Positions 12,242-55,890 are shown, numbered from the stretch's first letter. The stretch: DNA of 64,000 bases from an uncultured Candidatus Saccharibacteria bacterium (GCA_964371255.1 CAYJKV010000005.1:13816-77815), one strand, 5' to 3'. Notes: generated from the letters alone by a model not told the origin. Made by a program: numbers and translations.

Positions 12242-12254
12242 ATATAATGACGGT

Positions 12255-12638
12255 ATGGCACAAAATTTGACGGTTAAACAGCGCAGATTTGTTTCCGCCC
12301 TGGTAGAGCACGGTAATGCCACGCAAGCTGCTATTGATGCTGGCTACGAAGTACAAGACAGGATGTCAGCCAAAGTTATCGCCAGCCAGAACCTGGATAA
12401 GCCGAACATTCGCACAGCCCTTGATGCTGCCCTCTCACAGCGTGGCCTGGATGAGACTGCTATCGTTCAAGGACTTGCACGGCTTCTGGAATCCGAAAAC
12501 TTGGCTCACGTTGCCAGAGGCGTTGAGCTCCTATTAAAAATTAGAGGTGATGCCGCACCAAAACGAAGTATGCACGTACGTATGAGCTATGCCGAGCGAA
12601 TTAGGGAGGAATTAACCAGAAACGACCAACAAAACTGA
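12255..12638 (+). CDS. Phage terminase small-subunit-like protein (Terminase_2-type N-terminal HTH), orphan
   Basis: LTVKQRRFVSALVEHGNATQAAIDAGYEVQDRMSAKVIASQNL matches the conserved N-terminus of P27-family TerS (LT.KQ..F..Y...NATQAA..AGYS). No TerL, portal or capsid genes nearby. Confidence 0.7.
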   Translation: MAQNLTVKQRRFVSALVEHGNATQAAIDAGYEVQDRMSAKVIASQNLDKPNIRTALDAALSQRGLDETAIVQGLARLLESENLAHVARGVELLLKIRGDAAPKRSMHVRMSYAERIREELTRNDQQN

Positions 12639-12703: not shown

Positions 12704-13474
12704 CTACTCATTATTTTTTACCCAGAAAATCACTCGTTTCTCTAAAAGGACAACCACCCAGAAAAATAAAATTCCAGCCAGTGCCGCCGCAATGACTGCA
12801 CTAAACATTTTTACTATCTCCAAGTGATAGGAGTTAACTAGAATTAAATACCCAATGCCTCTATTTGCACCAACAAACTCACCAACAATTGCCCCAACGA
12901 CAGCGAGCGAGGTTGATATTTTAAGAGCCGAAAAGATATAGGGTAAGGCATTTGGTAATCGCAGCTTAGTAAAAATTTGCCATTTGGTTGCCGACAGGCT
13001 GCGTAGTAGGTCTAATGCTTCAGTATCCACCGCCTTAAGCCCCTTTGTTGTATTAACTATGGCAGGAAAGAAAGCGATTAGGGCTGCCGCAGCAACTTTG
13101 GATGATATACCGTTACCGAACCATAGCAGGAGTAATGGAGCCATTGCGATAATAGGAGTTGTTTTAAGGGCAATAGCATAGGGATATAACCCTTTTTCAA
13201 GCGTAGATGAGTGAGCAAAGACAATAGCGACAAGTACACCAATGGCGTTAGCAAGTGCAAAACCAAGAAAAGCCTCCCAAAGAGTAATACCTGTATGAAA
13301 AGCAAGGGTGTGAATGTTGACGATGAAATCTATAACAATTGCCGATGGCGCAGGAAGAAGATACTGTGGCACCTCAAGTGCACGAACAGTAAACTCCCAA
13401 GCAATGAGTATTGCCACGAAGGCAACAGCAGGAGCAAGGAAGTATGTTATTCGTGAAGTTGATTTCGTAGCCAT
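12704..13474 (-). CDS. ABC transporter permease, NitT/TauT family
   Basis: About 6 TM helices. Genomic context is an ATPase and NMT1-like binding proteins. Confidence 0.8.
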   Translation of the reverse strand: MATKSTSRITYFLAPAVAFVAILIAWEFTVRALEVPQYLLPAPSAIVIDFIVNIHTLAFHTGITLWEAFLGFALANAIGVLVAIVFAHSSTLEKGLYPYAIALKTTPIIAMAPLLLLWFGNGISSKVAAAALIAFFPAIVNTTKGLKAVDTEALDLLRSLSATKWQIFTKLRLPNALPYIFSALKISTSLAVVGAIVGEFVGANRGIGYLILVNSYHLEIVKMFSAVIAAALAGILFFWVVVLLEKRVIFWVKNNE

Positions 13475-14187
13475 TGGATTTGGTCTAAATATTCTTTACT
13501 GCTTTTTGTCTCAATTGCACGGGGACGAGGTAGCTGTATGTCTCTTACTGCCGCGATAGTCGCGGGTCGGTCTGATAAAACTATCACCTTATCTGATAGA
13601 AAAACTGATTCGGATAATGAGTGGGTAACAAAGAGAATAGTTTTCTTAGTCTTCTGCCAAATGTCTAGCAAGACCAAATTCATTCTTTCTCGCGTAAGTT
13701 CATCTAAAGCTCCAAACGGCTCATCCATTAACAGAATGTCGGGATTAAAAACTAGCGCACGAGCTAGGGATACTCGTTGCTTCATTCCACCAGACAACGC
13801 ATCAGGATAGTAGCCCGCAAACTCTTTCAGTCCAATTAGCTCAATGAGCTCTTGTGCTTCGGCAAGAGGAGAAGTATCCCCAATAATCTCTAACGGGAGT
13901 TCTACATTCTTTAATACCGTCCGCCAGGGAAATAAAACGGGGTTCTGGAACACAAAACCAAGTTCTCTTTTTTTAACTGCTACATCAAGCGAACTCTCTT
14001 TGATGCTTATGTGCCCGCGCAGTGGAGGAAGGAGACCCCCAACTATTTTAAGTAGTGTTGTTTTACCACAGCCAGAGGGGCCGACAATACTGACAAACTC
14101 CCCCTCCTGTATTTGGAAATTAATATCACGCAGGACGTGGAGAGAATCATAGGAATGATAAACATTCTGGGCTGCAATGAACGACAT
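13447..14187 (-). CDS. ABC transporter ATP-binding protein, NitT/TauT family
   Basis: Walker A GPSGCGKTT, signature LSGGMKQR, Walker B LLMDEPFGALD. Confidence 0.9.
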   Translation of the reverse strand: MSFIAAQNVYHSYDSLHVLRDINFQIQEGEFVSIVGPSGCGKTTLLKIVGGLLPPLRGHISIKESSLDVAVKKRELGFVFQNPVLFPWRTVLKNVELPLEIIGDTSPLAEAQELIELIGLKEFAGYYPDALSGGMKQRVSLARALVFNPDILLMDEPFGALDELTRERMNLVLLDIWQKTKKTILFVTHSLSESVFLSDKVIVLSDRPATIAAVRDIQLPRPRAIETKSSKEYLDQIQWLRNQLHE

Positions 14188-15197
14188 TATGGTAAAAACT
14201 CATTAGTGAATACCTGACGAGGGTCTAATTCTTGTTTAAGCAATTCCTGCTGCTTTAGAATCTCTGTTGTAGACTCCCACACTGAAGCCTCCATCAAACC
14301 AACCTTTGATTTTGCAGGCTGAACCAGAAGCTTGGTTGCAGAAAAGCTATCTTGCTCAAATTGCTCATTAAGTTGCGGGTCATATTTTCTTGCTAGTGCG
14401 TGTGCCTCTTGCTCATTATTAACTGCATATTCCCACCCACGAATAGTGGCATTGAGAAATTTTTGCACCGTTTCGGGATGTTCATTAATAAAGTCCTCAC
14501 GGGCAAAGATAACCTGGGCATACATAGGAATTCCATAGTCTTTCGGGAAAATGAGATTTGTCTCGAACCCCTGCGCCCTGGCAATGATGGGCTCAACATT
14601 GATGAAGCCTGGCCAGACATCAACTTCCCTTCTAAAGAAAAGGGTCATATCAAATTTTACAGGCACCTCCGTAACATCGCTGGACTTGATATTAAACTGG
14701 CTCAGGAGAGCTCGGTAAAGGATTTCTGTATCAAGGCCAGTCTTAACGCCAATTTTCTTTCCTCTAAAATCGCTAGGTGTGGTTATGCCAGAATCTTTGT
14801 GCGAGAAATAAACGATAGGATTTTCTTTGTAAATCGCTGCTATCGCTTTAATCGGGATGTCTTTATTTCTTGCCTGCAGAACTTCTACTGCCCCAGCCAT
14901 TCCGAAAGTATCAGAGCCGCTAGCAACCAGCAGGATAGAATTATGGTCTACACCTCCTGGGTGAATATCAACCTTTAGTCCTTCGTTTTCATACAATCCT
15001 CTTTCTTGCGCGGCATAATATCCCTCAAATCCTGCACCGTGCAGCCAAGCCAGCCTCAAAGAAATATTTTCTGCGTTATCGCTTTGTTCAGTCCGATTCC
15101 ACCAGAGAGTAGCAGTAATAAGAGCGACGAATACGATAAGAAGTATAGTTGCTTTTGAGCCAGTTATCTTAGGAAATAGTGGCATATTATTGCACAA
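14187..15197 (-). CDS. ABC substrate-binding protein, NMT1/THI5/SsuA-like (paralog 1)
   Basis: Signal anchor, then LRLAWLHGAGFEGYYAAQERGLYENEGLKVD...VASGSDTFG, typical of NMT1-like periplasmic binding proteins. Confidence 0.8.
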   Translation of the reverse strand: MCNNMPLFPKITGSKATILLIVFVALITATLWWNRTEQSDNAENISLRLAWLHGAGFEGYYAAQERGLYENEGLKVDIHPGGVDHNSILLVASGSDTFGMAGAVEVLQARNKDIPIKAIAAIYKENPIVYFSHKDSGITTPSDFRGKKIGVKTGLDTEILYRALLSQFNIKSSDVTEVPVKFDMTLFFRREVDVWPGFINVEPIIARAQGFETNLIFPKDYGIPMYAQVIFAREDFINEHPETVQKFLNATIRGWEYAVNNEQEAHALARKYDPQLNEQFEQDSFSATKLLVQPAKSKVGLMEASVWESTTEILKQQELLKQELDPRQVFTNEFLP

Positions 15198-16194
15198 ACT
15201 CTGTAGTAAAAGTCTTGTCTATTTCTACCGCATTTTTCATAAAGCCTTGCTCCAATAGTAATGTTTGTATTGACCGCCAAGTGGCATCATCCATAAAACC
15301 GACAGGGTTACTGTCTGGCTTCACCAGTGGAATACTTGCTTTCATCATTTTGGTTTCGTGTTCCTGATTAAGCTTGTCGCTAGACTGCAATGTATAAACC
15401 ACCGCCTGTTCAGGATTTTGCAAAGCAGCCTCCCACCCCTCAATAGTTGCTTGGACAACTCGCTGCACCACATCGGGCTTGTTCTTAATCATCTCCTCGG
15501 TAGTGAACAAAGTATCAGCATAGAGATTCACACCATAATCACTCGGCCAAATTAAATTGACCTGATGACCTTGTTCTTCAGCAGTAAGCGGTTCATTAAT
15601 GGCATAACCTGGCCAAACGTCTACCTGCCTGGTAAGGAGCGGCGTAATATCAAACTTTACAGGAACTTCCTGAAAGGACTTAGAATCAACACCCGCTTTC
15701 TTAAGTACAGCACGATACGTTAATTCCTCATTGCCGCCCAACTTCACACCCACCTTCTTGCCAACAAAATCTTTCGGCGAAGTAATATCAGAATCTTTTA
15801 GTGAAAATAGTACAAAGGGACTTTTTCGGTAAATAACCGCAAGTGCCACGACAGGAATTTCCTTTTCTCGCGCCAGCAAAATCTGGTCTGCCCCTGTTAC
15901 ACCAAATTGGTCTGACCCGCTAGCAACCATCTGAATTGCAGGAAAATCAACACCCCCTGGCTGAAGTGTGACGTTTAGATTTTTATCCTTGTAGAATCCT
16001 CCTTTATCGGCAAAGTAGAAACCTGCAAATTGAGCTTGGTTTAGCCACTTAAGACGAATAGAGACATTTTCTCCGTTTCCTGTCTCTAATAATGAATTAT
16101 TTTTACGAGCTGAAATTCCCCACCACAGAAGGGCACCTATTCCCATCACTATTATTGCGGCAATCAAAGTTTTCTTACTTGAGTTCATTATCAT
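15187..16194 (-). CDS. ABC substrate-binding protein, NMT1/THI5/SsuA-like (paralog 2)
   Basis: Paralogous to 14187-15197 (IRLKWLNQAQFAGFYFADKGGFYKDKNLNVTLQPGGVD..MVASGSDQFG). Confidence 0.8.
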   Translation of the reverse strand: MIMNSSKKTLIAAIIVMGIGALLWWGISARKNNSLLETGNGENVSIRLKWLNQAQFAGFYFADKGGFYKDKNLNVTLQPGGVDFPAIQMVASGSDQFGVTGADQILLAREKEIPVVALAVIYRKSPFVLFSLKDSDITSPKDFVGKKVGVKLGGNEELTYRAVLKKAGVDSKSFQEVPVKFDITPLLTRQVDVWPGYAINEPLTAEEQGHQVNLIWPSDYGVNLYADTLFTTEEMIKNKPDVVQRVVQATIEGWEAALQNPEQAVVYTLQSSDKLNQEHETKMMKASIPLVKPDSNPVGFMDDATWRSIQTLLLEQGFMKNAVEIDKTFTTEFVQ

Positions 16195-20777: not shown

Positions 20778-22388
20778 ATGGAAAATAAAAAAATGCGGTA
20801 CGTTATGTACCTTCGTAAAAGTACTGATGAGGATAATCGCCAGGTGCAGTCAATTGACGACCAGAAAAAAGAACTCGACCGCGTGGTGGAGCAGCACGGC
20901 TTAAATATTGTGGAGATTATCAGTGAGTCGCGGTCAGCCAAAAAACTTGGGCGGTCAGGCTTCAATAAAATGATTGAAATGATTGTAAGTGGCAGTGCCG
21001 ATGCAATTTTATGCTGGGAGGCAACCCGCCTCGCGCGTAATCCCGTTGATGGTGGAAAAATCCAGTGGCTTATGCTGGAAGGGAAAATTAAAGTGGTGCA
21101 CACCCCGCAACGAAAATACCTCTGTACTGACAATGTCATTATGATGGCTGTGGAGTTTGGTATGTCCACCCAGTTCAGTGTTGACCTGGCAAAAAATGTG
21201 AAGCGCGGAATGTTAAGCAAAGCAGAAAAAGGCTGGCGGCCAGGACAGGCTCCACTTGGCTATCTGAACGATAAGGTAGAAGAAAAAGGCAATAAGCGTA
21301 TCTACACGGATAATGAAAAGTTCCCTATTGTTCGTAAGCTATGGGACTTATTGCTATCAGGCAATTACACCGTCCCTGCGCTCGTCACTATTGCTAACGA
21401 GCAGCTTGGCCTGCGTACCAAGCGAGGCAAGAAAATCAGCCTGGGCAGCCTGTATCACCTGTTCAATGATAAGTTCTACTACGGTGAATACACTTTTGAC
21501 GGTGAAGTCTACCAGGGCAAGCACAAGCCAATGATTTCTGCCGAGGAGTTTGACCGCACCCAAAAGATTTTAGGCCGTGCGGGACGGCCGCGACCAAAGT
21601 ACAAGCGGCTACCATTTAATGGGTTAATCCAATGCGCTGCCTGCGGTCGCACTATCACCTGCGATGAGCGGGTCAAGGTCATTAAGCGTACAGGCGAAAC
21701 CAAAAGTTTTATGTACCATCGCTGCACGCATAAAACTAGGAACCACTACTGCCCGCAGCCGCCCGTGACATTTGGCAACTTGGTCGAGCAGGTGCAGCAG
21801 TACCTGGGTAACATCACTATCCCGCCAGAGTTCTTAGAGTGGGCCGTACAGTCACTACGCGAGCAGCAGAAGCTGGAAGAAACGAACCGCAACCAAATCC
21901 TCGCCAACCTACGGAACAACCACCAGAACGTGATTGACCGCATTGATAGTCTGGTCAACAACTATATCGCGCCAGAAAATGCCAAGCGCGAACTAATTAG
22001 CGACGATGATATGAAGCGGCAAAAGGCTGCGCTCCTGCAAGAGAAGTCAGTGATTGAGCGGGAGTTGAGTAACACAAGTCTGCGCGTTAATGAGTGGGTG
22101 GACTTAACCATCAAAACTTTTCACTTCGCCACCTACGCCAAAGCCTGGTTTGATAAAGGCGACTACGAAACCAAGACTGCTATTCTCCGCGCGCTTGGCG
22201 TGACATTCACACTCAAAGACCGTAGCCTCCTGTTGGACTTGAAAGGGCCGTACGTCGTCATTAAAAAAGGTGTTGCAGCAGGATTGTTTGAGAACCCCGT
22301 ACTCGGACTGGTCAGGAAGGCTCTGCAAGAGCCTGCGCTGGCTCAACAGCCTGAAATTGCATCCGTATTATCCAGTTGGAGCGGGTAA
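20778..22388 (+). CDS. Large serine recombinase (resolvase catalytic domain + recombinase domain + Zn ribbon)
   Basis: N-terminal YVMYLRKSTDEDNRQ..SIDDQ is the catalytic-Ser motif region. Mid-section matches the recombinase domain. C-terminal CAACGR..C...YHRCTHK..HYC is a Zn ribbon. The stop codon lies inside the tRNA-Gly 3' end. Confidence 0.9.
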   Translation: MENKKMRYVMYLRKSTDEDNRQVQSIDDQKKELDRVVEQHGLNIVEIISESRSAKKLGRSGFNKMIEMIVSGSADAILCWEATRLARNPVDGGKIQWLMLEGKIKVVHTPQRKYLCTDNVIMMAVEFGMSTQFSVDLAKNVKRGMLSKAEKGWRPGQAPLGYLNDKVEEKGNKRIYTDNEKFPIVRKLWDLLLSGNYTVPALVTIANEQLGLRTKRGKKISLGSLYHLFNDKFYYGEYTFDGEVYQGKHKPMISAEEFDRTQKILGRAGRPRPKYKRLPFNGLIQCAACGRTITCDERVKVIKRTGETKSFMYHRCTHKTRNHYCPQPPVTFGNLVEQVQQYLGNITIPPEFLEWAVQSLREQQKLEETNRNQILANLRNNHQNVIDRIDSLVNNYIAPENAKRELISDDDMKRQKAALLQEKSVIERELSNTSLRVNEWVDLTIKTFHFATYAKAWFDKGDYETKTAILRALGVTFTLKDRSLLLDLKGPYVVIKKGVAAGLFENPVLGLVRKALQEPALAQQPEIASVLSSWSG

Positions 22389-22451
22389 CGGGAGTCGAAC
22401 CCGTATCTCTACCTTGGCAAGGTAGTGTAAAAGCCATTATACGATACCCGC
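22377..22451 (-). tRNA. tRNA-Gly (anticodon GCC), CCA encoded
   Basis: Reverse-complement folds as acceptor GCGGGTA/TACCCGC, anticodon stem CTACC/GGTAG with loop TTGCCAA, T-arm ACGGG-TTCGACT-CCCGT, discriminator T, then CCA. Confidence 0.85.
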
Positions 22452-22520: not shown

Positions 22521-22560
22521 TGTTTTTCATTTTTCGCTTTACGCTTTTCGTTTCTCTTGT
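22521..22560. repeat. Conserved T-rich tRNA-trailer motif, copy A (gtttttcatttttcgctttacgcttttcg)
   Basis: About 25/29 identical to the motif at 63731-63779, and similar to the one at 58616-58668. Confidence 0.7.
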
Positions 22561-22631
22561 GCCGCGGGTCAGAGTTGAACTGACTACGCCGACCTCTTCA
22601 GGGTCGCGCTCTACCGATGAGCTACCGCGGC
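22560..22631 (-). tRNA. tRNA-Phe (anticodon GAA)
   Basis: Reverse-complement GCCGCGGTAGCTCATCGGTAGAGCGCGACCCTGAAGAGGTCGGCGTAGTCAGTTCAACTCTGACCCGCGGCA. Anticodon loop is CTGAAGA. Confidence 0.8.
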
Positions 22632-22860: not shown

Positions 22861-23865
22861 GTGGGACGACCAGTAACTTTGTTCACAGGACAATGGGCAG
22901 ATCTGAAACTTGAGGAGCTAGCCGCCAAAGCAGCCAATTTCGGCTACGATGGGCTGGAACTCGCTTGTTGGGGAGACCATTTCGAAGTAGATCGAGCCAT
23001 CAATGAAGATGGCTACTGTGCCAAGCAACGCGCGATACTGGAGCGTTATGGATTGAAGTGTTACGCCATCAGCGCTCACCTGGTTGGTCAAGCCGTGTGT
23101 GACCTCATCGACGAACGTCATAAAAGCATCCTGCCTGAAGATGTATGGGGAGATGGTGATCCCGCGGGTGTGCGTTGGCGAGCTGCGGAGAAGATGAAGC
23201 AAACAGCCATAGCGGCCAAGAGATTCGGTGTCGAAGTAGTTAACGGCTTCGTGGGCAGCTCAATTTGGCACTTACTTTATTCTTTCCCACCAGCCTCGAG
23301 AGAAACGATCGCCGCCGGCTTCACCGATTTCAAAGAAAGGTGGACTCCAATTCTCGATCACTTTCGGGCAGTAGGCGTTAAGTTTGCTCTGGAGGTTCAC
23401 CCCACCGAAATCGCCTTTGATATTGCCTCAGCCAGTCGAGCCTTACAAGCTGTTGACTGGCACCGATCTTTCGGATTCAATTATGACCCGTCTCATCTCG
23501 CCTATCAAGGAGTAGACTACGTCAGATTCATCCGTGAGTTTGGGCAACGTGTCTTCCATGTACACATGAAGGACGTCTGGTGGAACCACGGTGACGGCAG
23601 CGTAGGAGTGTTTGGCGGACACACAGCCTTCGGTGATCCACGACGTTATTGGGACTTCCGCTCGCTTGGGCATGGCGATGTTAATTTCGAAGAGATCATC
23701 GTAGCGCTCAATGATGCTGGTTACCAAGGACCGCTTTCGGTGGAATGGGAAGACATGCGCATGGATCGTGAGCACGGGGCAGCAGAAGCCTGCCAGTTTG
23801 TGAGACGAGCAGACTTCAAACCATCAAACGTCGCTTTTGACGCCGCCTTCGATAAGGAATCATGA
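22861..23865 (+). CDS. Sugar phosphate isomerase/epimerase (xylose-isomerase-like TIM barrel family)
   Basis: GTG start. [17 protein letters not shown]...H.KD..W is characteristic of the AP-endonuclease-2/XylA-like TIM barrel. GC-rich. A TTGACA(17)TAATTT-like promoter lies upstream. Confidence 0.75.
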
Positions 23866-24036: not shown

Positions 24037-24137
24037 CCTTACACAGCGTCCTCGCCTAACACGGCATATCCAATATTTACTACCTAAAAGCTTTAGCCAG
24101 AACAACTAAAGACTATATCCACTGTTAATATCATTAG

Positions 24138-24222
24138 TGCGGACGGTGGGATTTGAACCCACAACCTCGTAATGAGGCACAGCCCCTCAAGCTGCTGCGT
24201 AAACCAATTCCGCCACGTCCGC
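24138..24222 (-). tRNA. tRNA-Leu (anticodon GAG), long variable arm
   Basis: Reverse-complement GCGGACGTGGCGGAATTGGTTTACGCAGCAGCTTGAGGGGCTGTGCCTCATTACGAGGTTGTGGGTTCAAATCCCACCGTCCGCA. Anticodon loop is TTGAGGG. Confidence 0.8.
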
Positions 24223-24256: not shown

Positions 24257-24967
24257 TCAAGCGATTCGCAATATCGACCCGCCCTTTTTGTAGCCTTTGG
24301 GTTGCTGTCCTTTCTGGGCGAGGTAATTAGCTGCCCATTGGCGATCAAGTTTTGCTTTTTTGCGCTGAAGACATGCGATGCAATCAGAGTAATACATTGC
24401 CTGGTAAATCTTCAGTGAGTTTTGTTTTGCATATTTCAAACAATATACCTTGGAGCCACGACGAACATGTCCAGATATTCCAGCTAATTTATTGACTGTT
24501 TGGTCAAGCCATACTAAATGTTTTTTACTAGCACAGGCAAAGCTAATGTAAAGCGAAACACTACTGTGCCATCGAGTATCCCAGTAGGCATGTGATGATC
24601 CATCGCCATCAAATTCTCCGCGTAAATAATCAAAAAAATATTGGTCTGGGATTTGTACTTTACCAATAGTGTGAGTTTTACGAGGAGTAATGCCTATAGA
24701 AACAAACCACTCGTAAAGGGTTACGTCACCAAATTGCACTTGTGAGCAACGATTTCCGTCACCCGAGGGCTTGCTGCTTATCTTAACATTTAAACTTAAG
24801 CATTTTTTAAATGTTTCTAATAATTGAGTATCCTTAGAAGTTAGGCTCAAGTGTCTACCGTCAGAATATAGGCATCCGTCAGTAGCCATAAGACCACAAG
24901 CGTAAGCTAACTCTGGTGTCCATTCTGGAATTCGTAGGCGCCTTGGTTTTGAACCTCTTTTCCCCAT
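24257..24967 (-). CDS. Free-standing double-motif LAGLIDADG homing endonuclease
   Basis: Motif 1 LAYACGLMATDGCL. Motif 2 YLRGEFDGDGSS, about 100 aa later. 236 aa with a basic C-terminus. Confidence 0.8.
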   Translation of the reverse strand: MGKRGSKPRRLRIPEWTPELAYACGLMATDGCLYSDGRHLSLTSKDTQLLETFKKCLSLNVKISSKPSGDGNRCSQVQFGDVTLYEWFVSIGITPRKTHTIGKVQIPDQYFFDYLRGEFDGDGSSHAYWDTRWHSSVSLYISFACASKKHLVWLDQTVNKLAGISGHVRRGSKVYCLKYAKQNSLKIYQAMYYSDCIACLQRKKAKLDRQWAANYLAQKGQQPKGYKKGGSILRIA

Positions 24968-25764: not shown

Positions 25765-26005
25765 TCCAAATTCCAAAGCTCAAATGCCAAATTAATATCA
25801 AATGACTAAACGACAAAATCTCAGACATTAGTCATTTGGATTTTGATTAATCATCGAAATTTGGCCTCTAAGAGGTCCCATAAGGATCATTGATCATTAT
25901 AAACCTTGTTTGAAATTTGGTCTTTGTAAATTGAAAAGTGTTGCTCCTTGTTTGAAATTTGGTCATTCGGATTTGATTGGGATTTGGGATTTGGACATTG
26001 GGATT
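25765..26005. repeat. Array of CCAAAT (x4, 25765-25792) and inverted ATTTGG-type (x7 or more, 25855-26005) hexamer motifs, with an 11-bp perfect inverted repeat caaatgactaa/ttagtcatttg (25799-25809 / 25828-25838) and a 19-bp direct repeat cttgtttgaaatttggtc (x2)
   Basis: Read directly from the sequence. Intergenic between the nfo stop and the UDG start, and extending into the nfo 3' end. Confidence 0.8.
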
Positions 26006-26871
26006 TTTTTCACTGTTCTCCATTCCTTTAGCCTCTCCAAATCCTGTCCAATCAGTTCGTCCTGTTTCGTCTCCAGCACAAAATTGACCTGTTGAAAATA
26101 TGGATGGGCTAATATGGCCTTAAATCCATCCTCTCCAATCTTGCCTAGTCCGATATGTTCATGGCGGTCCTTTTGTTCACCTAAGCCAGCCTTTGAATCA
26201 TTGATATGCACCAGTTTCAACCGCTCAATGCCTAAAGATTGCTTAAATTGAACCATTGTTTCATCTAGCGCCGCTCTTGTTCTTATATCATAACCGCTGG
26301 CAAACATATGACACGTATCTAAACAAACCTGCATGTCTTTCTTACCTAAACCTTTGATAATATACGCTAGCTCTTCGAATGAATTGCCAATCAACGCTCC
26401 AGCACCCGCGGAAATCTCCAACAACAAGCGCGCGGTAAACTTTGGGTTGCCGTGTAGCACCGCCCGCAGTCCCTTGATCGTTCGTTTTAATGCCCCACCG
26501 GGTGTTTTACCCTTTTCCACACCTGGCCAATCCCTGGCGCTGCCCAAATGCGTTACCACGTATTTTACTCCCAATAAACTAGCTCTCTCCATCTCCTCTC
26601 GTACCACCCTGACAGTATTCTCCGCCAACTCCTTCTTGGGAGCAGCAAAGTTAATGTAGTAAGGCGTATGCATATAACTTTCCATCTCATACTGCTGGCA
26701 GCGTTGCCTGAATAGCAATGCATCATCTTCGCTTATTTGGGGAGCTACTCCACCGCGCGGACTGCGCGAAAAAAACTGGAAACACTCCGCGCCGACCTCT
26801 TTCGCTCGGTCCGGTGCCTTGGCCACTCCCCCGGCCGCCGATACATGTAATCCTACTTGCTGGTATTTCAT
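25963..26871 (-). CDS. nfo: Endonuclease IV (AP endonuclease family 2)
   Basis: YMHTPYYINFA...HLGSA...CLDTCHMFASGYD are the conserved Nfo metal-binding blocks. The C-terminal tail of about 20 aa is encoded by the repeat array. Confidence 0.9.
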   Translation of the reverse strand: MKYQQVGLHVSAAGGVAKAPDRAKEVGAECFQFFSRSPRGGVAPQISEDDALLFRQRCQQYEMESYMHTPYYINFAAPKKELAENTVRVVREEMERASLLGVKYVVTHLGSARDWPGVEKGKTPGGALKRTIKGLRAVLHGNPKFTARLLLEISAGAGALIGNSFEELAYIIKGLGKKDMQVCLDTCHMFASGYDIRTRAALDETMVQFKQSLGIERLKLVHINDSKAGLGEQKDRHEHIGLGKIGEDGFKAILAHPYFQQVNFVLETKQDELIGQDLERLKEWRTVKKIPMSKSQIPIKSE

Positions 26872-26881
26872 ACCCTCTATC

Positions 26882-27205
26882 TTATTCCTGACCAGAAATT
26901 CCGCTTAAGCACATCTCATAATCTTCACAATTCCTGATCCCCTGGGTTTTGCATTGGTCTTTCACTATATTGCATAGCTCAACATCGGCGGCGATCCTCG
27001 GCGCCCCTTCAAATTCTATCGCGTATTCTTCCAGCGCGACCTGTTCTAAAGGTTGGGGAATCTCTGGTGCCATAGTCGGCCCCGCTGCCTCTTGTTGTGC
27101 CAGTTGTTTACCACTATCCTTCTGCGCGTTAAACCAAAGCGCGGCCCCTGCCAGCACCACCATTAATACTGCCACCGCCAAGATCACTTTCAATAATCCG
27201 TTCAT
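26882..27205 (-). CDS. Small secreted/membrane-anchored protein, hypothetical
   Basis: N-terminal TM segment. 107 aa. 4 Cys. Confidence 0.4.
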   Translation of the reverse strand: MNGLLKVILAVAVLMVVLAGAALWFNAQKDSGKQLAQQEAAGPTMAPEIPQPLEQVALEEYAIEFEGAPRIAADVELCNIVKDQCKTQGIRNCEDYEMCLSGISGQE

Positions 27206-27229: not shown

Positions 27230-28246
27230 TTATAAACCGCGCGGTTTTTGCGGACTGGCGGCCCGCCAAAACTTCATCACTGTTCTTAGGCGGTCTTCTG
27301 TGCCTATTGCCTCACGGCGGTTTGGCTGCGCGACCAGTCTGGGTGCATAGTACGACCAAATATCCCAGGTGACAAATCGCTCTCCCAACTCTTCCCGAAT
27401 AATAGCGTTCAGCCTGGGCAGCAATTTTGCGCCCGTTGTTTTAGCTCCTTTGACAACTCCGCTTTGCGGCGCTCTGATTTTATCCAACTTTGGGTCGGTA
27501 CTAAGAGCCCAGGCATCGATAAAGAAATTGCGGTCGGTCACCTCGTTTGTTACGTCCTGTCTATCATAAACATCATTGATAAACTTAAAACTAATCTCGC
27601 TGCCCGCGAAACTCCGCAGTAAACCCACTTGGTGTATGCGGTATTTATTATCCCCTTGCTCCATGGTTAAAACCTTCCACGCTTGCCCGTCTATATATAC
27701 CGCCACCTGGACCGGTTCCGGTTGATCATGGCGAGCGGTGATGTACAACCAATAGTTCTCACGCGTCACCCGAACAACCTTACTAACCGTTGACGTGTTC
27801 CCGGCCAGTCTTGCTACCACCCGTTCCTGGTCTTCAACGATAGTTGTATTACTGCCGCTGGTCTGATGCCCCCGTTCCGGCGCAAATGGATAAGTAACGA
27901 TATTGATGCTGGCTGCCGCGTCACCCCCGACACCGCCCGATCCCCCTCCGCCTTCATCGCCGCTCGTTTCTTCCCCGCTATCTGTCGGCCCCAGTACTTT
28001 TATTGTCACCGGTTCGCTTTGTGCCAGCGTGTCACCAATCTGCCCATCTTCCACTGTAATATTAAACGTATGATCACCTGGAGGGGCATCGGCGGGAATG
28101 GTAATAGCTACTTTCTGCTCCAAGATTGTTTCTGAAACAACTGAGGTCGTTATAAATTTTTGTATTTCTGGCACACTAAGTACGATGCTTCCCGTGATCA
28201 CCGCCCCGGCTAATAGAAATAAATACAGTTTAGATGTTTTTTTCAT
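27230..28246 (-). CDS. Secreted protein with a Gly/Ser-rich linker, hypothetical
   Basis: Signal peptide MKKTSKLYLFLLAGAV. Linker GGGGSGGVGG. No recognisable catalytic motif. Confidence 0.5.
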   Translation of the reverse strand: MKKTSKLYLFLLAGAVITGSIVLSVPEIQKFITTSVVSETILEQKVAITIPADAPPGDHTFNITVEDGQIGDTLAQSEPVTIKVLGPTDSGEETSGDEGGGGSGGVGGDAAASINIVTYPFAPERGHQTSGSNTTIVEDQERVVARLAGNTSTVSKVVRVTRENYWLYITARHDQPEPVQVAVYIDGQAWKVLTMEQGDNKYRIHQVGLLRSFAGSEISFKFINDVYDRQDVTNEVTDRNFFIDAWALSTDPKLDKIRAPQSGVVKGAKTTGAKLLPRLNAIIREELGERFVTWDIWSYYAPRLVAQPNRREAIGTEDRLRTVMKFWRAASPQKPRGL

Positions 28247-31059
28247 TATTTAATTTCACTGAAGTAGATATTAACTGTCATCTTCAACAGCAAACGGGCC
28301 TTGTCTAAAATATTTGACCTAACTGTAAAAGGTACTTCAATGGTCTGCCCAGGCCTGGCTTCTAATCTAGTCTGTCCTGGAATATTGATTGTTGCTTGGC
28401 GGGACACCGCCCTTACTATTGTCTCGTCATAAGCCGTCAGATTACCGTCATTGGCCATTAATCTTAAAACATATTCCCCTTCTTGCCTGAAGATTGCGTT
28501 AGTGGTTGCTGTTTGGCTATCACTTAACTCCATCTGTCCCGCTGGCCCACTGACCTGAGCCCATTCTACCAGCAGCGGGTTTGCTCCTGATATTCCATCA
28601 TCACTGACCACCCCCGTCATCTGAACAGGTTCATTGATCAGAAGCTGCAGGTCTTCCCCGGCCGAAACTTGCGGAGCATTATGGACAATCACCGCCACCT
28701 CATCAGCTGCCAACAGTTCACCGTCACTGGCACTGAGCCGTAGTATATAACGACCAGGTAAAGTAAAATCAACCGACGTGGCAGCCTGGTCGTATCCATT
28801 TATACTCACTTCGCCCGGTCCGCTAATTTTACTCCACAGGAGGTTCACCTGTCCTGGCTCCGTTGGTTTTCCGTCATCGGTCACCACTCCGGACAGCTGC
28901 ACTGCACTGCCCCATTCGGCGATAATATCATTTCCCGCGCTTACCTGGGGAGCTGCGTTGCGTACAATCACGGACACCTCGACTGTGCTAATAGATGAAC
29001 TCGCCTTACTATCTGAAGACACGTAAGTGAAAGTATCTTTCCCTGCAAAAAATCGATCCGACAAGTAAAGAAAGGAGCCGTTCGCATTGAGTGTCACATT
29101 ACCATGCTGTGACTCTTGTACTAGTTGTGCTGTTAAAATGTCGCTGTCTTCATCTGTGTCATTCGCCAATACGCCAGGTGCGGGGATCGTTAATTCCTCG
29201 TATTGAAAAGCCTCATAACTATCATTCTGGCCCACCGGCACCGTGTTCACTTGCACGATGATTTCGTCGGAAGATATTAATTCCCCATCACCTGCCTGCA
29301 ATCTTAAAGTATAATCTCCAGCTTCACTGAATGTAGCGCTAGTCGCAGCCAAAGTATCGTCTATAAACACCACTTCACCTGTCCCGCTTACTTTGCTCCA
29401 CATTATTTGCTGGGGCTGCCCCGGCGGCTCACCGTCGTCTTCCACTGTCCCAAGCAGTATTGCGGCATCGGGTAGATTAATTATCATATCCTCTCCCGCC
29501 TGTACCACTGGCGCGGCATTTCTGACCGCTACGGTTATTTCTACTGTGACCGGCTGTGATGTGGTTACTCCATCAAATGCCTGATAAGTAAAACTATCTA
29601 CCCCCCGCCAGTCGCTATTAGATGTATAACTAAACGAACCGTTGGCACTTAACGCTAATTCACCATGTTGCACATTATCGACCAGCTGTGCGGATAATTG
29701 ATCTCCGTCTGGATCGGTATCATTCTGTAATACGCCATTAGACATTTCTATCTGCAACGATTCACCTCTCCAGGCGTCATATTCTTCGTCATTAGCGCTC
29801 GGTGCTTGATTTTCCGCCTTGACCGTTATTACTACATCGTCGGTAGATGTCAAAGTTCCGTCTCCTGCTGACAATTCCAACACGTACACCCCTGCTTCCA
29901 AAAACGTGGCTGTTGTTGTCAATGCGGTCGCATCACCGAAAATCACCCCGTCAGGCCCGTTTACCTTACTCCATGCTACCGCTACGCTCGCTGGAGGATC
30001 CGGCAAGCCGTCGTCTGACATAGTACCATTCAGATTAACCTGACTAAGCGGCAACCTTATTTGTTGATCAACGCCGGCATTCACTGCCGGTGGAGAATTT
30101 TCCACCAAGACATTAATCACCGCTTCTCCGGTAACAATATCAGGGATGATTTCGTAACTGTCTGTCTCTATTAAAACATTGCCAAAAGGCTTACTAGATG
30201 ACTTATTGGCTGTCGTGACTGTTGTTTGTCCCACCCCCACTGCTTTGAAAGTGAATATCCCTAAAGTACCGGCGCCGCTATTATTATTGGCTAGGCTAAA
30301 ACCGCCCGATCTCACCTCTCCGGAACTGTTAATCGTACTCAAGCCCCGCGTATCAGCAATAAAAGTCGCAAAGTCCCCACTCTGTTGATCGACCAATGCC
30401 AGTTTAGTCTGGTCGAACCTCAAATATTGCGCCCAGTTCGCAAATGGAGTTGCTTCCTCCAGCCTTACTCTAATTTCTACGTTATCGCCCAAAGCCAGCT
30501 TTGTCTTGTTTGTTTGCAATGATAAATCTGGCGCCGGTGGTGCCGCCTCAACCGTTAAGATGATTTCATCGCTGCCGCTGGTTTGCCCGTCATTGGCTGT
30601 CAGTGCTAATGCGTACGTTCCGGCGACAGAAAAAGCGGCCGTTGTTTGCAATGCGTTTACAGATCCAAACGCCACATCACCAGGACCAGATATTTTGCTC
30701 CAATTAATTGTCATTTCGCCCGGCACTATGGGTAACCCATCATCGGTAGCTGTACCTGCCAAATTCGCTTCTTGAGGTAGACGAACAGTACTATCGTCTC
30801 CGGCTGCGACTGTTGGCGGCACATTCTTGGCCGTCACCACCACTTTCACGGGATCACTGGAAAAAGTATCAATACTGTCATTGGCGGTAAACTGGATTGA
30901 ATGTTCACCAATCAAACTTAGGTCATCAGGCACCGTATAGTGAAATATCTTTTGTATTTCCTGCTCGGGGGGCAAGACCTGTGTTCTAATATATTGCGTC
31001 AGCATACTGCCGGCAGCGACCAGCAACAGTAAGCCAGCTGCCACTACTATACCAGTCAT
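28246..31059 (-). CDS. Giant surface protein: N-terminal TM anchor, a cohesin-like domain, and at least 7 PKD/K319L-like Ig-fold repeats
   Basis: Repeating unit of about 95 aa: P.V.AG.D....LP.....L.G...DDG.P.......WSK.SGPG.V.F........A.FS..G.Y.L.L.A.DG.L...DE. Cohesin-like segment VRLEEATPFANWAQYLRFD...GGFSLANNNSGAGTLGIFTF. Start taken at MTGIVVAAG (31059). Confidence 0.7.
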   Translation of the reverse strand: MTGIVVAAGLLLLVAAGSMLTQYIRTQVLPPEQEIQKIFHYTVPDDLSLIGEHSIQFTANDSIDTFSSDPVKVVVTAKNVPPTVAAGDDSTVRLPQEANLAGTATDDGLPIVPGEMTINWSKISGPGDVAFGSVNALQTTAAFSVAGTYALALTANDGQTSGSDEIILTVEAAPPAPDLSLQTNKTKLALGDNVEIRVRLEEATPFANWAQYLRFDQTKLALVDQQSGDFATFIADTRGLSTINSSGEVRSGGFSLANNNSGAGTLGIFTFKAVGVGQTTVTTANKSSSKPFGNVLIETDSYEIIPDIVTGEAVINVLVENSPPAVNAGVDQQIRLPLSQVNLNGTMSDDGLPDPPASVAVAWSKVNGPDGVIFGDATALTTTATFLEAGVYVLELSAGDGTLTSTDDVVITVKAENQAPSANDEEYDAWRGESLQIEMSNGVLQNDTDPDGDQLSAQLVDNVQHGELALSANGSFSYTSNSDWRGVDSFTYQAFDGVTTSQPVTVEITVAVRNAAPVVQAGEDMIINLPDAAILLGTVEDDGEPPGQPQQIMWSKVSGTGEVVFIDDTLAATSATFSEAGDYTLRLQAGDGELISSDEIIVQVNTVPVGQNDSYEAFQYEELTIPAPGVLANDTDEDSDILTAQLVQESQHGNVTLNANGSFLYLSDRFFAGKDTFTYVSSDSKASSSISTVEVSVIVRNAAPQVSAGNDIIAEWGSAVQLSGVVTDDGKPTEPGQVNLLWSKISGPGEVSINGYDQAATSVDFTLPGRYILRLSASDGELLAADEVAVIVHNAPQVSAGEDLQLLINEPVQMTGVVSDDGISGANPLLVEWAQVSGPAGQMELSDSQTATTNAIFRQEGEYVLRLMANDGNLTAYDETIVRAVSRQATINIPGQTRLEARPGQTIEVPFTVRSNILDKARLLLKMTVNIYFSEIK

Positions 31060-31170
31060 TACCTCGCCCTTGTTTAACACCGATGCCTCAAGGTTACCTG
31101 GCCGGCAGCCTGTCGGCTCTCTCTTTACTCTCTGCCCTGGGCTATGCAGTAAATTAATCATCAGCCTTGA

Positions 31171-32376
31171 TTATTCAAATATTGAATCGGTAAACACTTG
31201 CGGACTGTCCGTTATAAAGTTGAATAATAAACTTGTCAGGTCCACATTACGACCTCTGACCGTAATTGGTATTGCAGCGTTACTGCCAATTTCTACATAA
31301 ACAACATCCGGGGCGACAAAGTACACTTCCGGTGCCGGTTGAACCGATATTGTTACTTCGTCTGTCGTGTTCAGCGCCCCGTCATTAGCTGTTAGTCGCA
31401 GCACGTATGTTCCATCCGTGCTGAATGTCGCTGTAGTGGTTGTCTTATCACCAGAGCCAAAAGTCACCGTGCCTGGCCCGGACACTTTGCTCCATTGCTT
31501 AGTTACCAGCGCTGGTGGTGTAGGCAAGCCATCGTCGGACACCGCCCCTATTAAAGTTATTGAGTTAGGTAGTCTGATTGTCTTATCCTCCCCCGCTGCC
31601 ACCACCGGAGCAGTATTATGCGGCCAGACATTTATTACTAATTCTCCTCCGCCTACCGTTGGAACAAAATCTGTTCCGCCGGTATCGCTAAATCGGTTAC
31701 CAAACAAGTTGGACGCGGAATAATTCTCAGTCGTAATCTTGACTGGCACCGGCACGGTTGCTGCCGCCGGCAAACTAGACTCAACCCTAAACGTAAAACT
31801 GCCTAATGTCCCGCTCCCCCCCTCGTTATTGGTCAAGCTAAAGCCACCGGCTCTAATCTCGTCCGTTTGGTTGATTGTTTGCAGACTTCTTGAATCCGGG
31901 ACAAACGTTGGCCAACTGCCGCCATTTTGTTGTTCCAGTTTTAGCAACCGATTATCGCCATTAAAGCCCAGCCATTCTTGCCAGCTGGCAAACGCAGCAG
32001 CGTCCGCCAGGTTCATGGTCACTGTCACGGCCTCACCAACAGTCACATTCTCTTTATCAACGCTAATTGTTAAATTAGTGTCACCTTCTCGGGCAAAATT
32101 GGCAATCACGATCATTAAGTCAGTATTATTAACCGCTCCGTCGCTATTAGCATCGGCGCGGCCATCCAAGTCTGGATCTCCCGTTGTTTTGCCAAAGTTA
32201 GCTGAAACTAGCATTAGGTCGGTAATATTCACTACCCCATCACCATTCAAATCGCCTAAAGTCCCAGCCGCTTCCGCCTTGATCGCCTGACCCCATATTA
32301 TGGCTAGCACAAATAGCCCTTTCAGAACGACCGAAGATTTCCAAGAAGCATTCATAAGGACAACAAAAGTATGCAT
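31171..32376 (-). CDS. Surface protein with signal peptide, type-I dockerin repeats, a cohesin-like domain and one PKD-like repeat (paralog of 28246-31059)
   Basis: Dockerin-like GDLNGDGVVNITDLMLVSANFG and ADANSDGAVNNTDLMIVIANFA. Cohesin-like VTMNLADAAAFASWQEWLGFN..GGFSLTNNEGGSGTLGSFTF. PKD-like APVVAAGEDKTIRLP..SDDGLP..WSKVSGPG. Confidence 0.7.
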   Translation of the reverse strand: MHTFVVLMNASWKSSVVLKGLFVLAIIWGQAIKAEAAGTLGDLNGDGVVNITDLMLVSANFGKTTGDPDLDGRADANSDGAVNNTDLMIVIANFAREGDTNLTISVDKENVTVGEAVTVTMNLADAAAFASWQEWLGFNGDNRLLKLEQQNGGSWPTFVPDSRSLQTINQTDEIRAGGFSLTNNEGGSGTLGSFTFRVESSLPAAATVPVPVKITTENYSASNLFGNRFSDTGGTDFVPTVGGGELVINVWPHNTAPVVAAGEDKTIRLPNSITLIGAVSDDGLPTPPALVTKQWSKVSGPGTVTFGSGDKTTTTATFSTDGTYVLRLTANDGALNTTDEVTISVQPAPEVYFVAPDVVYVEIGSNAAIPITVRGRNVDLTSLLFNFITDSPQVFTDSIFE

Positions 32377-53537: not shown

Positions 53538-53912
53538 ATGTATACTAAGCCCATGTCCATTATCACCCGTTATACCAAGCGATTATCCGTTATTCTGACC
53601 CTTGGGCTATTATTTTTGCCCCTTATCTCCCAGGCTCAGGCTACGCCCGCCAACTTTGAAAATCCCCTAGACCCTGTCAGGGACGTCCGGGTTCTAATTC
53701 AAAACCTAATTATTTGGCTTGTTGGATTATCGGCCCTCATCGCCCTTCTTGCTTTGGTTGTGGGAGGTATGCGTCTGATCGTTGGCGGTTTCGACAATGA
53801 ACAAGAAGCTGCCAAAGCAAAAAGAATTATTACCTGGGCTGTTATCGGCCTGGTTGTGGTAGCTATGGCGGCAGGCATTCTGTCTACACTCAGCGACGTA
53901 CTCGACATTTAA
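53538..53912 (+). CDS. TrbC/VirB2-like (CPR-type) pilin, single domain
   Basis: Signal peptide, then hydrophobic helix-GG-R-hydrophobic-acidic/basic loop-hydrophobic helix: LVVGGMRLIVGGFDNEQEAAKAKRIITWAVIGLVVVAMAAGI. Confidence 0.65.
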   Translation: MYTKPMSIITRYTKRLSVILTLGLLFLPLISQAQATPANFENPLDPVRDVRVLIQNLIIWLVGLSALIALLALVVGGMRLIVGGFDNEQEAAKAKRIITWAVIGLVVVAMAAGILSTLSDVLDI

Positions 53913-53930
53913 TCGATTAGATCATCACTT

Positions 53931-54563
53931 ATGCCTAAATTCCTGCCATCACTTATCATAATCCTGCTCGCTTGCGTCTTTTTAGTCTTACCCGTTCAAA
54001 TTCTTCATGCTCAAACGTCGTGCGACAACCTGTCCGCCTGCATAACCGAGACGTATTCTTGGGCCACCGAGACGGTTAGATTATCTCCATACACCATTAG
54101 TGAATTTCTGACTAACATCATAGTTTTTGTATCTTCCTTTGTTGCCATTGTGACAGCGGTCGTAATTTTGTTCGGTGGTCTCATGTACGTCTTTTCTGCT
54201 GGTGATGAAAGACGTGCCGCGCAAGCCAAAAACATTATTTTATTCGCCATTATTGGGCTAATCATTGCCGTCAATACCAGTATCATCGTCGGACTTATCC
54301 AAGACGTCGCTGGCGACCCTGCTGGTCCTGGTCTTGGGGTTGGGCCGATAATCGAACTGATTGGTCAGATTGGTATTATTATACTTGCTCCACTTGCTTT
54401 GATAGCCACTGGGGCCATCGTTTATGGCGGTTATATGTATATCACCTCGGCTGGTGAAGAAGATCGGGCTCGTCGTGGAAAACAAATAATTATCTACGCT
54501 CTCGTTGGTGTCTTTATTACCTTAATTTCAGCCTTAATAGTTAATGTTGTGATTTCGTTATAG
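53931..54563 (+). CDS. Tandem two-domain TrbC/VirB2-like pilin fusion
   Basis: Two copies of the pilin unit (..ILFGGLMYVFSAGDERRAAQAKNIILFAIIGL.. and ..IVYGGYMYITSAGEEDRARRGKQIIIYALVGV..) joined by a Gly/Pro linker. Confidence 0.65.
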   Translation: MPKFLPSLIIILLACVFLVLPVQILHAQTSCDNLSACITETYSWATETVRLSPYTISEFLTNIIVFVSSFVAIVTAVVILFGGLMYVFSAGDERRAAQAKNIILFAIIGLIIAVNTSIIVGLIQDVAGDPAGPGLGVGPIIELIGQIGIIILAPLALIATGAIVYGGYMYITSAGEEDRARRGKQIIIYALVGVFITLISALIVNVVISL

Positions 54564-54595
54564 CATTAAGCATCCTCACTAAAACTTTTAAGACC

Positions 54596-54985
54596 ATGCC
54601 TTTTAAGAACACCCTGCCCAAGTTACTGCAAACACGCATCTTATTATACGTCGTGTTCGTGTCATCTTTGTTTCCATTATCGACCTACGCCCAAGCTGTC
54701 AGGCCAGTGCCCAACCTGTGGTGTAGTCTGTGGGGAATCCGCTGCGGCGGTGGAGCGCCGCTTAATACTCTGTGGGGCATGCTGTGGTCAGTTGTCACCA
54801 TTGCTTTATCTTTTGTTGCCATTGTTGCTACTGCTTTTTTGGTCTATTATGGCTTTCTTTATGTAATGTCACGCGGCGAAGAGGACAACGCTCGTCGTGC
54901 CAAAGCCGGTATTGTTTATGCGATCCTGGGTATGATTGTTGCCGGTACAGCCGCTTGGCTGGTTAACGCTGTCATTAATATATAA
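54596..54985 (+). CDS. TrbC/VirB2-like pilin variant with a Cys pair in the mature N-terminus
   Basis: LWCSLWGIRCGG, then the pilin unit LVYYGFLYVMSRGEEDNARRAKAGIVYAILGM. Confidence 0.6.
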   Translation: MPFKNTLPKLLQTRILLYVVFVSSLFPLSTYAQAVRPVPNLWCSLWGIRCGGGAPLNTLWGMLWSVVTIALSFVAIVATAFLVYYGFLYVMSRGEEDNARRAKAGIVYAILGMIVAGTAAWLVNAVINI

Positions 54986-54987
54986 TT

Positions 54988-55812: not shown

Positions 55813-55890
55813 CCTCTCCCTTCCCGCGCCGTCCAAAATCCCTATTATCTAAATTTTATAAATAAGCTATATTAACATCACACCAAGGAG

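Follow-up and report, generated by a model that had tools for sequence, protein, structure and literature searches.

A dockerin and two divergent cohesins in a conserved four-gene cassette of an Andersenbacteria-like bacterium: a possible enzyme-free surface scaffold or adhesin

Among described systems, the closest counterparts of the locus analyzed here are the anchoring and adaptor scaffoldins of cellulosomes (for example, ScaB and ScaA of Acetivibrio cellulolyticus, and the complex of the ScaA cohesin with the Cel48 dockerin of Pseudobacteroides cellulosolvens, 2Y3N), which use the same pair of modules. In the Planctomycetes, a hypothetical "planctosome" of the Nemodlikiaceae comprises an anchor with a cohesin and an adaptor of the form signal peptide-dockerin-X-cohesin, the latter proposed to bind dockerin-bearing peptidases (PMC6461901). 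Within the candidate phyla radiation (CPR), expressed cohesin and dockerin genes of Candidatus Shapirobacterales have been interpreted as a cellulosome (PMC9123182), and SEML1_0315, an essential dockerin protein of the cultivated Saccharibacterium Southlakia epibionticum, has been speculated to target host glycans (PMC10633639). Non-cellulosomal dockerins in giant open reading frames (ORFs) of the Omnitrophota have, in turn, been proposed as adhesins (PMC10066038). Here, we describe two adjacent genes, P1 and P2, in a 64,000-nucleotide stretch deposited for an uncultured Candidatus Saccharibacteria bacterium (GCA_964371255.1 CAYJKV010000005.1:13816-77815; hereafter, the window, by which we mean the whole stretch). 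They combine a dockerin, two divergent cohesins, and a stalk of PKD and cadherin-like repeats, and they stand with two further genes, P3 and P4, in a conserved four-gene cassette. Our reading, held at about even confidence, is that this cell-envelope cassette encodes an enzyme-free, non-cellulosomal cohesin-dockerin surface scaffold or adhesin.

The evidence that carries this reading lies in one dockerin and two cohesins, distributed over P1 and P2 as follows.

31171-32376, minus strand: P1 gene, 401 amino acids (aa), with a signal peptide-like segment, dockerin, cohesin, PKD repeat and C-terminal tail (ORF and domain hidden Markov models, HMMs)
28246-31161, minus strand: P2 gene, 971 aa from the first ATG, a cohesin-bearing stalk protein with a predicted membrane anchor (ORF, start codons and domain HMMs)
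32092-32259, minus strand: P1 dockerin, aa 40-95, two near-symmetrical Ca-binding repeats (Pfam PF00404; PDB 2y3n_B)
31615-32085, minus strand: P1 module assigned as a cohesin, aa 98-254 (family profile, 170.7 bits; AlphaFold2 model; Foldseek)
30097-30537, minus strand: P2 module assigned as a cohesin, aa 209-355 (family profile, 194.6 bits)

The P1 dockerin matched Dockerin_1 (PF00404) over aa 40-93 (46 bits; cut-off, 22.9), in an alignment that takes in model positions 1-55 of 57, and at least 15 solved dockerins were matched in the PDB, the closest being 2y3n_B of Pseudobacteroides cellulosolvens (E = 1.2e-12). Its two Ca-loops, DLNGDGVVNITD at aa 42 and DANSDGAVNNTD at aa 75, fit the canonical pattern D-x-[DN]-x-[DN]-G-x-x-[DN]-x-x-D, are followed by nearly duplicated helices (TDLMLVSANFGK and TDLMIVIANFAR), and are the only dockerin motifs in the six frames of the window. 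An earlier reading of this DNA, made from the sequence alone (hereafter, the sequence-only reading), had already placed two proteins of 401 and 937 aa here, the latter corresponding to P2 from a later ATG, and had given the shorter one a signal peptide, two dockerin-type Ca-binding repeats and one PKD-like repeat. All of these parts were recovered, the N-terminal segment as signal peptide-like, and domain HMM scans put both the dockerin and the PKD repeat above curated thresholds. The dockerin occupies the N-terminal part of P1, and its linker to the P1 cohesin is about 3-5 residues long, which makes it unlikely that it folds back onto the cohesin of its own chain. We infer that it binds a cohesin in a Ca2+-dependent manner, the choice of partner being likewise a prediction.

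A homologue search by word index, with the cohesin module as the sole query, found nothing. An exhaustive profile search that started from the aligned pair of P1 and P2 cohesins yielded 134 representatives (50% clustering), 88 of them below 1e-10, and a family profile was built from 42 aligned relatives among these. Compared with the PDB, this 42-sequence profile matched 22 sequences, all of them cohesins (the ScaB cohesin dyad 3l8q at 1.7e-11, and single cohesins at 4e-5). Pfam Cohesin was matched individually by 28 of the 42 relatives (best E = 2.7e-8), as well as by 46 of 115 full-length relatives. An AlphaFold2 (AF2) model of P1 aa 100-254, computed with the family alignment, reached a pLDDT of 95.4 and a pTM of 0.89 and contained about ten strands and one short helix, in line with the elongated nine-stranded beta-sandwich (jelly-roll) of cohesins; AF2 run on the single full-length P1 sequence gave no usable fold (pLDDT 31). 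The 50 best PDB matches listed by Foldseek for the model were all cohesins (probability 1.00, TM-score 0.58-0.71), including 2y3n_A, which is the partner of the best dockerin match, and two non-cellulosomal folds, the Archaeoglobus fulgidus cohesin 2xdh and the Clostridium perfringens cohesin-like 2jh2. Profile and model lie nearest to the type II-style cohesins 3l8q, 1qzn, 1tyj and 2y3n_A, and the P1 and P2 modules belong to a distinct subfamily. Because the profile matches only cohesins in the PDB, relatives match Pfam Cohesin, and the predicted fold matches cohesins, the module is, at the level of profile and fold, a genuine but divergent cohesin. The "cohesin-like" label of the sequence-only reading thus holds at that level, though the module alone stays below the Pfam threshold.

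The same reading had taken the two cohesins to be near-identical, which they are not: they share 40-41% identity, and in every genome that carries the cassette the two cohesins are 35-42% identical to each other. They are ancient, deeply diverged paralogues that these lineages have kept distinct. The subfamily is recognizable by the motif TF[VI]xDxRxLxxINxSGE[VI]RxGGF, and in 19 of its 134 representatives the cohesin-bearing chain also contains at least one dockerin repeat by the strict motif, in most cases at its C-terminal end. In the 115 relatives scanned, the commonest Pfam families were Cohesin (46), K319L-like PKD (11), Dockerin_1 (11), PKD, Big_9, He_PIG, Ig domains and Por_Secre_tail, cadherin domains being present as well, with no family of glycoside hydrolases or other carbohydrate-active enzymes (CAZymes) among the 25 commonest.

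Adjacent dockerin and cohesin genes were also found outside the cassette. The most similar dockerins came from three metagenome loci (L093 3943-6949, L094 1742-3935 and L095 2-4031), in each of which a large surface protein ends in a dockerin and the next gene encodes a signal peptide-bearing cohesin protein, which in L093 and L094 has a hydrophobic PEP-CTERM-like tail. These three are unrelated high-GC contigs, and the arrangement looks like a recurrent two-gene dockerin/cohesin module. Among the matches listed for Poribacteria (L016-L086), dozens of loci carry genes for proteins about 950-1400 aa long, in which a weak match to the cohesin subfamily precedes a C-terminal dockerin; at several loci such genes stand in tandem (three in a row in L023). 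Gut metagenome loci encode signal peptide-cohesin-dockerin proteins of about 230 aa. Contig scans seeded on generic dockerin peptides returned mostly Poribacteria and unrelated dockerins, with no P1 orthologue among the matches listed. Taken together, these gene arrangements show that dockerin genes are recurrently paired with genes for anchored cohesins of this type, in association with adhesin-like architectures.

Apart from these modules, P1 and P2 consist of N-terminal hydrophobic segments, repeats and tails, all on the minus strand (KD, Kyte-Doolittle score; TM, transmembrane).

32269-32376, minus strand: P1 signal peptide-like N-terminus, aa 1-36, AEA/AG (one mild hydrophobic 19-mer, KD 1.75)
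31342-31617, minus strand: P1 K319L-like PKD repeat, aa 254-345 (PF22352 at aa 261-345, 44.5 bits against 27; local repeat HMM)
31174-31341, minus strand: P1 C-terminal tail, aa 346-401 (57-77% identical in orthologues)
30991-31056, minus strand: P2 predicted TM anchor, aa ~36-57, with invariant G-E-V ahead (sole P2 segment with KD >1.8; kept in five orthologues)
30826-30990, minus strand: P2 membrane-proximal N-domain, aa 58-112, common to P3 (hhalign)
30550-30825, minus strand: P2 PKD repeat 1, aa 113-204 (local PKD HMM, 117 bits; Pfam K319L-like_PKD)
29821-30099, minus strand: P2 PKD repeat 2, aa 355-447 (Pfam and local HMM)
29527-29811, minus strand: P2 cadherin-like/tandem-95 repeat 1, aa 451-545 (Cadherin_4, Big_9 and Cadherin_5, E ~1e-28 to 1e-30; tand_rpt_95)
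29248-29520, minus strand: P2 PKD repeat 3, aa 548-638 (Pfam and local HMM)
28966-29247, minus strand: P2 cadherin-like repeat 2, aa 639-732 (Pfam, NCBIfam and local HMM)
28408-28959, minus strand: P2 PKD repeats 4 and 5, aa 735-826 and 827-918 (Pfam and local HMM)
28249-28407, minus strand: P2 C-terminal tail, aa 919-971 (58-81% identical in orthologues)

K319L-like PKD (PF22352) scored 144.2 bits over five stretches of P2, against a cut-off of 27, and six such repeats were delimited over P1 and P2 together. The cadherin-like repeats of P2 also exceeded their thresholds (Cadherin_4, PF17803, 104.6 against 25.1 bits; Big_9, PF17963, 104.9 against 23.6), as did the NCBIfam model tand_rpt_95 (NF012211; 110.5 against 90 bits). 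Hence, the seven or more PKD-like repeats that the sequence-only reading had counted in P2 resolve into five PKD and two bacterial cadherin-like repeats (Cadherin_4/Big_9/tandem-95), and the epithet "giant" does not suit a protein of 937-971 aa. In a map drawn with locally built repeat HMMs, the gaps between modules measure 0-4 residues. The repeats are old and diverged, at 31-52% identity to one another, and no tandem repeats were found at the DNA level in the window. P2 orthologues follow the order PKD-cohesin-PKD-(Cadherin-PKD)n-PKD, with n = 2 or 3 and one variant that lacks one PKD. The variation in repeat number that had been suggested as a check exists between lineages (894-1192 aa) but not within the sampled population, where P2 differs by 0-8 substitutions at unchanged length. 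The 1192-aa orthologue (L087, 9194-12772) contains two PKD repeats that are 79% identical, along with a third cadherin-like repeat bearing a Cys-rich insertion, a pattern that points to a recent intragenic duplication of the Cadherin-PKD unit.

The tails of P1 and P2, each of about 55 aa and beta-rich, matched neither Pfam nor the cohesin profile and bear a weak likeness to one another (hhalign probability, 44%). That they might be truncated cohesin N-termini, left as pseudogene remnants, was considered and rejected, as they are kept in all orthologues and are unlike the cohesin profile. In size, each amounts to roughly half of an Ig or cohesin domain, and tail-tail complementation is conceivable.

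One N-terminal hydrophobic segment is present in each of the four cassette proteins, mild in P1 and strong in P2, P3 and P4. An A-x-A/AG-like site also occurs in the P1 orthologues of L087 and L091, and the single TM-like segment of P2 (about aa 36-57) agrees with the anchor proposed from the sequence. We infer that P1 is exported by a Sec-type signal peptide and that P2 has the topology of a type II-like membrane protein. In all five P2 orthologues (window, L087, L091, L092 and L089), an invariant G-E-V directly precedes the TM helix and TQY[IVLM][RK]T[QK] directly follows it (window 30991-31070, P2 aa ~31-62). Such a combination of G-E-V, hydrophobic helix and TQY invites comparison with type IV pilin-like proteins, an assignment that we rejected for want of a prepilin HMM match; P2 aa 1-116 gave no Pfam family at E<=10 and no NCBIfam prepilin match.

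The start of P2 may also lie further downstream, at a GTG (944 aa) or at a second ATG (937 aa), with a GAGG-like motif ahead of each later start, and public gene calls use the 944-aa form. P1 and P2 share a reading frame, a single TAA and three sense codons preceding the first P2 ATG (31161-31176). A single gene with a read-through stop was nonetheless rejected, since L087 and L091 do not keep the frame relation and P2 starts with a TM region of its own; the common frame is probably a coincidence. At least 22 metagenome contigs contain a gene for the identical P1 protein, which is therefore no assembly artefact.

Downstream of P2, the cassette continues with two smaller genes.

27230-28246, minus strand: P3, 338 aa, with a predicted TM anchor, P2-like N-domain, Gly-rich linker, possible CBM60-like beta-sandwich and conserved C-terminal domain
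26882-27205, minus strand: P4, 107 aa, with a predicted TM anchor and a conserved C-terminal region with four Cys; always after P3

The start of P3 overlaps the stop of P2 by 1 nt, and P4 begins 24 nt after P3. That these genes belong to the locus, as the sequence-only reading had suggested, is supported by their conservation with P1 and P2 as a block, and P3 shares the TM segment and membrane-proximal domain of P2 (hhalign probability 91.8%, E = 7e-7); it had called both products secreted, whereas the strong TM-like segment of each makes them look membrane-anchored. The P3 family comprises only nine clusters, all unannotated, and its profile matched nothing significantly in the PDB. Five of its nine members matched CBM60, a carbohydrate-binding module (CBM) family, below threshold (best, 23.9 bits against 28.2).

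The P1-P2-P3-P4 block is present in the window and on the diverged contigs L087, L091 and L092, at least four related lineages in all, with a partial copy on L089, and Andersenbacteria-like contigs were the only ones found to carry the cassette together with P3 and P4. In every related locus, the cassette is followed by endonuclease IV and, in L087 and L091, where the contig reaches that far, by uracil-DNA glycosylase; upstream lie RNase Y in the window, L091 and L092, and ATP synthase genes in L087. From this gene order, the setting looks like core-genome synteny and not like an island. The window contains two AP_endonuc_2 (endonuclease IV-like) genes within 4 kb of each other (22861-23865, plus strand, and 25963-26871, minus strand), the latter 10 nt downstream of P4. 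P1 orthologues are 62-78% identical per module. Dockerin and cohesin occur together in the cassette of every orthologous locus, and they are its best-conserved modules (dockerin, 62-77%; both cohesins, 64-79%), with the distal repeats (45-54%) and P4 conserved least (41-54% for these in distant pairs).

From these parts, a working model can be drawn. P2 would sit in the membrane by its one N-terminal helix and project as a stiff rod of about ten beta-sandwich modules, with its cohesin near the membrane. P1 would be secreted, and its dockerin would most likely plug, in a Ca2+-dependent manner, into the cohesin of a neighboring molecule, binding in trans because the linker of 3-5 residues disfavors self-binding. 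The anchored cohesin of P2 is the prime candidate partner, and the most economical one, because P1 would thereby be tethered to the cell. Once docked, P1 would display a second, different cohesin and its PKD domain, and the P1 cohesin, because it has diverged, probably has another partner. P3, with its P2-type anchor and possible carbohydrate-binding domain, and P4, as a small Cys-rich membrane protein, would be co-inherited partners. The assembly would most plausibly be an adhesive or structural surface fiber that might, for instance, make contact with a host cell or host glycans; the adhesive role is a prediction.

Like the scaffoldins, the cassette pairs a cell-bound cohesin protein with a second protein that carries both a dockerin and a cohesin. 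It departs from them in several respects. In P1, the dockerin lies at the N-terminal end and adjoins the cohesin without an intervening X-module; P2 is held by a TM helix instead of S-layer homology (SLH) domains or sortase, and it has rigid PKD and cadherin repeats in place of flexible linkers. Where a cellulosomal scaffoldin has multiple cohesins, P1 and P2 have exactly one each, and neither matched a CBM, SLH or LPXTG model (Pfam, NCBIfam). Further, the host is a CPR bacterium without evidence of cellulolysis, and no catalytic partners are in sight: no second dockerin, further cohesin, CAZyme or dockerin-bearing glycoside hydrolase was found in the window or 10 kb to either side. The layout of an anchored cohesin protein and a secreted signal peptide-dockerin-cohesin protein also fits the planctosome, which is equally hypothetical in function, except that no dockerin-bearing peptidase is seen near P1 and P2. 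The CPR reports concern the same superphylum and likewise propose roles in glycan or host interaction for surface-exposed dockerin or cohesin proteins; they rest on domain annotation or Tn-seq essentiality and, compared by description, include neither an anchor-adaptor pair nor a PKD/cadherin stalk. Finally, seven P2 modules and one P1 module belong to the same families as the PKD/cadherin-like (tandem-95, VCBS, Big_9) repeat adhesins, in which repeat number commonly varies between lineages, as it does in P2, but the cohesin near the membrane-proximal end of P2 and the dedicated dockerin-bearing partner gene set the cassette apart from these.

Several findings weigh against an enzyme-free scaffold or adhesin built on this pair. 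With Pfam Cohesin (PF00963; threshold 24.1), the P1 module scored 14.7 bits (E = 0.036) and the P2 module gave no match. The two cohesins, as judged from their sequences, probably differ in specificity, and because the cassette holds a single dockerin, at least one cohesin is left without an identified partner; the dockerin inventory covers only about 84 kb of the genome. The near-clonal P2 variants give no hint of diversifying selection, which adhesins that contact a host often show. A scan for promoters and terminators gave nothing above chance around the cassette, whose genes lie within a long co-directional array of housekeeping genes. Divergence below the Pfam threshold could also mean that P1 and P2 are plain multi-domain adhesins or envelope proteins that do not pair, the cohesin being a spacer or ligand-binding beta-sandwich and the dockerin a Ca2+-stabilized or glycan-binding module. 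The absence of a strict dockerin motif from 115 of the 134 relatives would fit such proteins, and, to our knowledge, pairing has never been demonstrated for the majority of cohesins and dockerins outside cellulosomes; the giant-ORF dockerins of the Omnitrophota have also been suggested to be adhesins in themselves (PMC10066038). We consider this unlikely, given the joint presence and high conservation of dockerin and cohesin in every orthologous cassette, the recurrence of adjacent dockerin and cohesin genes in unrelated lineages, and the intact Ca-loop residues and helix symmetry, which are typical of cohesin-binding dockerins.

A minimal enzyme-recruiting scaffold, in which both cohesins capture hydrolases with dockerins that are encoded elsewhere in the genome (for example, glycosidases or peptidases attacking polymers of the host or the environment) and P1 acts as an adaptor scaffoldin, is a further possibility that we would not expect to hold. 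It would give the cohesins their canonical role, and every relative in the PDB is a scaffoldin cohesin. The divergence of the two cohesins suggests that each has a specificity of its own, as is the case in adaptor and anchoring scaffoldins, and the sub-threshold CBM60-like domain of P3, the cellulosome interpretation in the CPR (PMC9123182) and the peptidase-recruiting model in the Planctomycetes (PMC6461901) all speak in its favor. Yet each protein has a single cohesin and no CBM, the surveyed flanks provide neither a second dockerin nor a CAZyme, glycoside hydrolases are missing from the 25 commonest Pfam families of the relatives, and the very short interdomain linkers are unlike those of flexible scaffoldins. 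The remaining alternative, which we regard as very unlikely, comes closest to the self-assembling scaffold of the sequence-only reading: P1 would polymerize head to tail, each dockerin binding the cohesin of the next P1, into a self-assembling fiber primed on the P2 cohesin. Both modules are indeed present in P1, with a linker too short for intramolecular binding, and single chains with both recur, in the 230-aa proteins of gut metagenome loci as in the 19 of 134 relatives. In characterized scaffoldins, however, the dockerin of a chain and its own cohesins are, as far as is known, non-cognate. Further, the P1 and P2 cohesins are held at 35-42% identity in all lineages, so that one dockerin is unlikely to serve both, and their deep divergence speaks against a simple homotypic self-assembly in which both have the same specificity. 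Returning to the scaffold or adhesin in which P1 docks on P2, the comparison leaves the earlier proposal partly confirmed in what it observed and partly supported in how it was interpreted, the supported part being a surface locus in a CPR organism.

The window encodes a NusA that is 86% identical to that of Candidatus Andersenbacteria bacterium RIFCSPHIGHO2_12_FULL and 75-83% identical to several other Andersenbacteria proteins, which places the host in the Patescibacteria, with Candidatus Andersenbacteria (Parcubacteria group, phylum Candidatus Anderseniibacteriota); the small-cell or epibiotic lifestyle guessed earlier was a reasonable one. Seven small T4SS_pilin/TrbC-like genes, many ORFs without a Pfam match, and a GC content near 46% are features that we take to fit Andersenbacteria. 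The seven paralogues (53553-56902 and 60036-60377, plus strand), which match T4SS_pilin (PF18895)/TrbC and are interspersed with a glycosyltransferase, are unusually dense. The literature that we searched held no link between Andersenbacteria and cohesin or dockerin domains. Elsewhere in the window, a large serine recombinase (Resolvase and Recombinase domains; 20778-22388, plus strand) ends against genes for tRNA-Gly and tRNA-Phe (22377-22451 and 22559-22631); it is found at the same place in L001 and L004 and may mark the edge of an integrated element. A free-standing ORF resembling LAGLIDADG-type homing endonucleases (24257-24967, minus strand; faint LAGLIDADG_3) adjoins tRNA-Leu (24137-24222), outside any rRNA gene or recognizable intron. 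Two tandem genes for NMT1/THI5-like substrate-binding proteins of 336 and 335 aa (12704-16194, minus strand) overlap by 11 nt beside an ABC permease, and an ORF of 792 aa without a Pfam match (9944-12322, minus strand) has a public call of 760 aa in L174, from a different start.

Public annotation labels P1 and P2 with dockerin, PKD and cadherin-type domains only and overlooks their cohesins; surveys of non-cellulosomal cohesin-dockerin systems would become better if they included the subfamily of 134 representatives. The impact of the finding is moderate in that every module belongs to a known family and cohesin or dockerin genes have been noted before in the CPR, Planctomycetes, Poribacteria and Omnitrophota. 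A bolder version of the scaffold reading is that the cassette forms a self-contained, lineage-specific attachment organelle of Andersenbacteria, with a rigid P2 stalk of about 35-45 nm on which P1 is docked through a dedicated cohesin-dockerin pair, with the P1 cohesin or the tails of P1 and P2 making a second, new contact (by tail-tail complementation or by capture of a ligand on the host surface), and with glycan binding contributed by P3. We think it quite improbable that all of these parts hold together. If they did, this would be the first cohesin-dockerin machine for the adhesion of an episymbiont to its host rather than for enzyme assembly. Little is known of how CPR/Patescibacteria attach to their hosts, and the candidate surface structures that have been defined at the sequence level are few. 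In this context, the cassette offers a compact, conserved and experimentally tractable candidate, with a dockerin of 56 aa and cohesins of about 150 aa.

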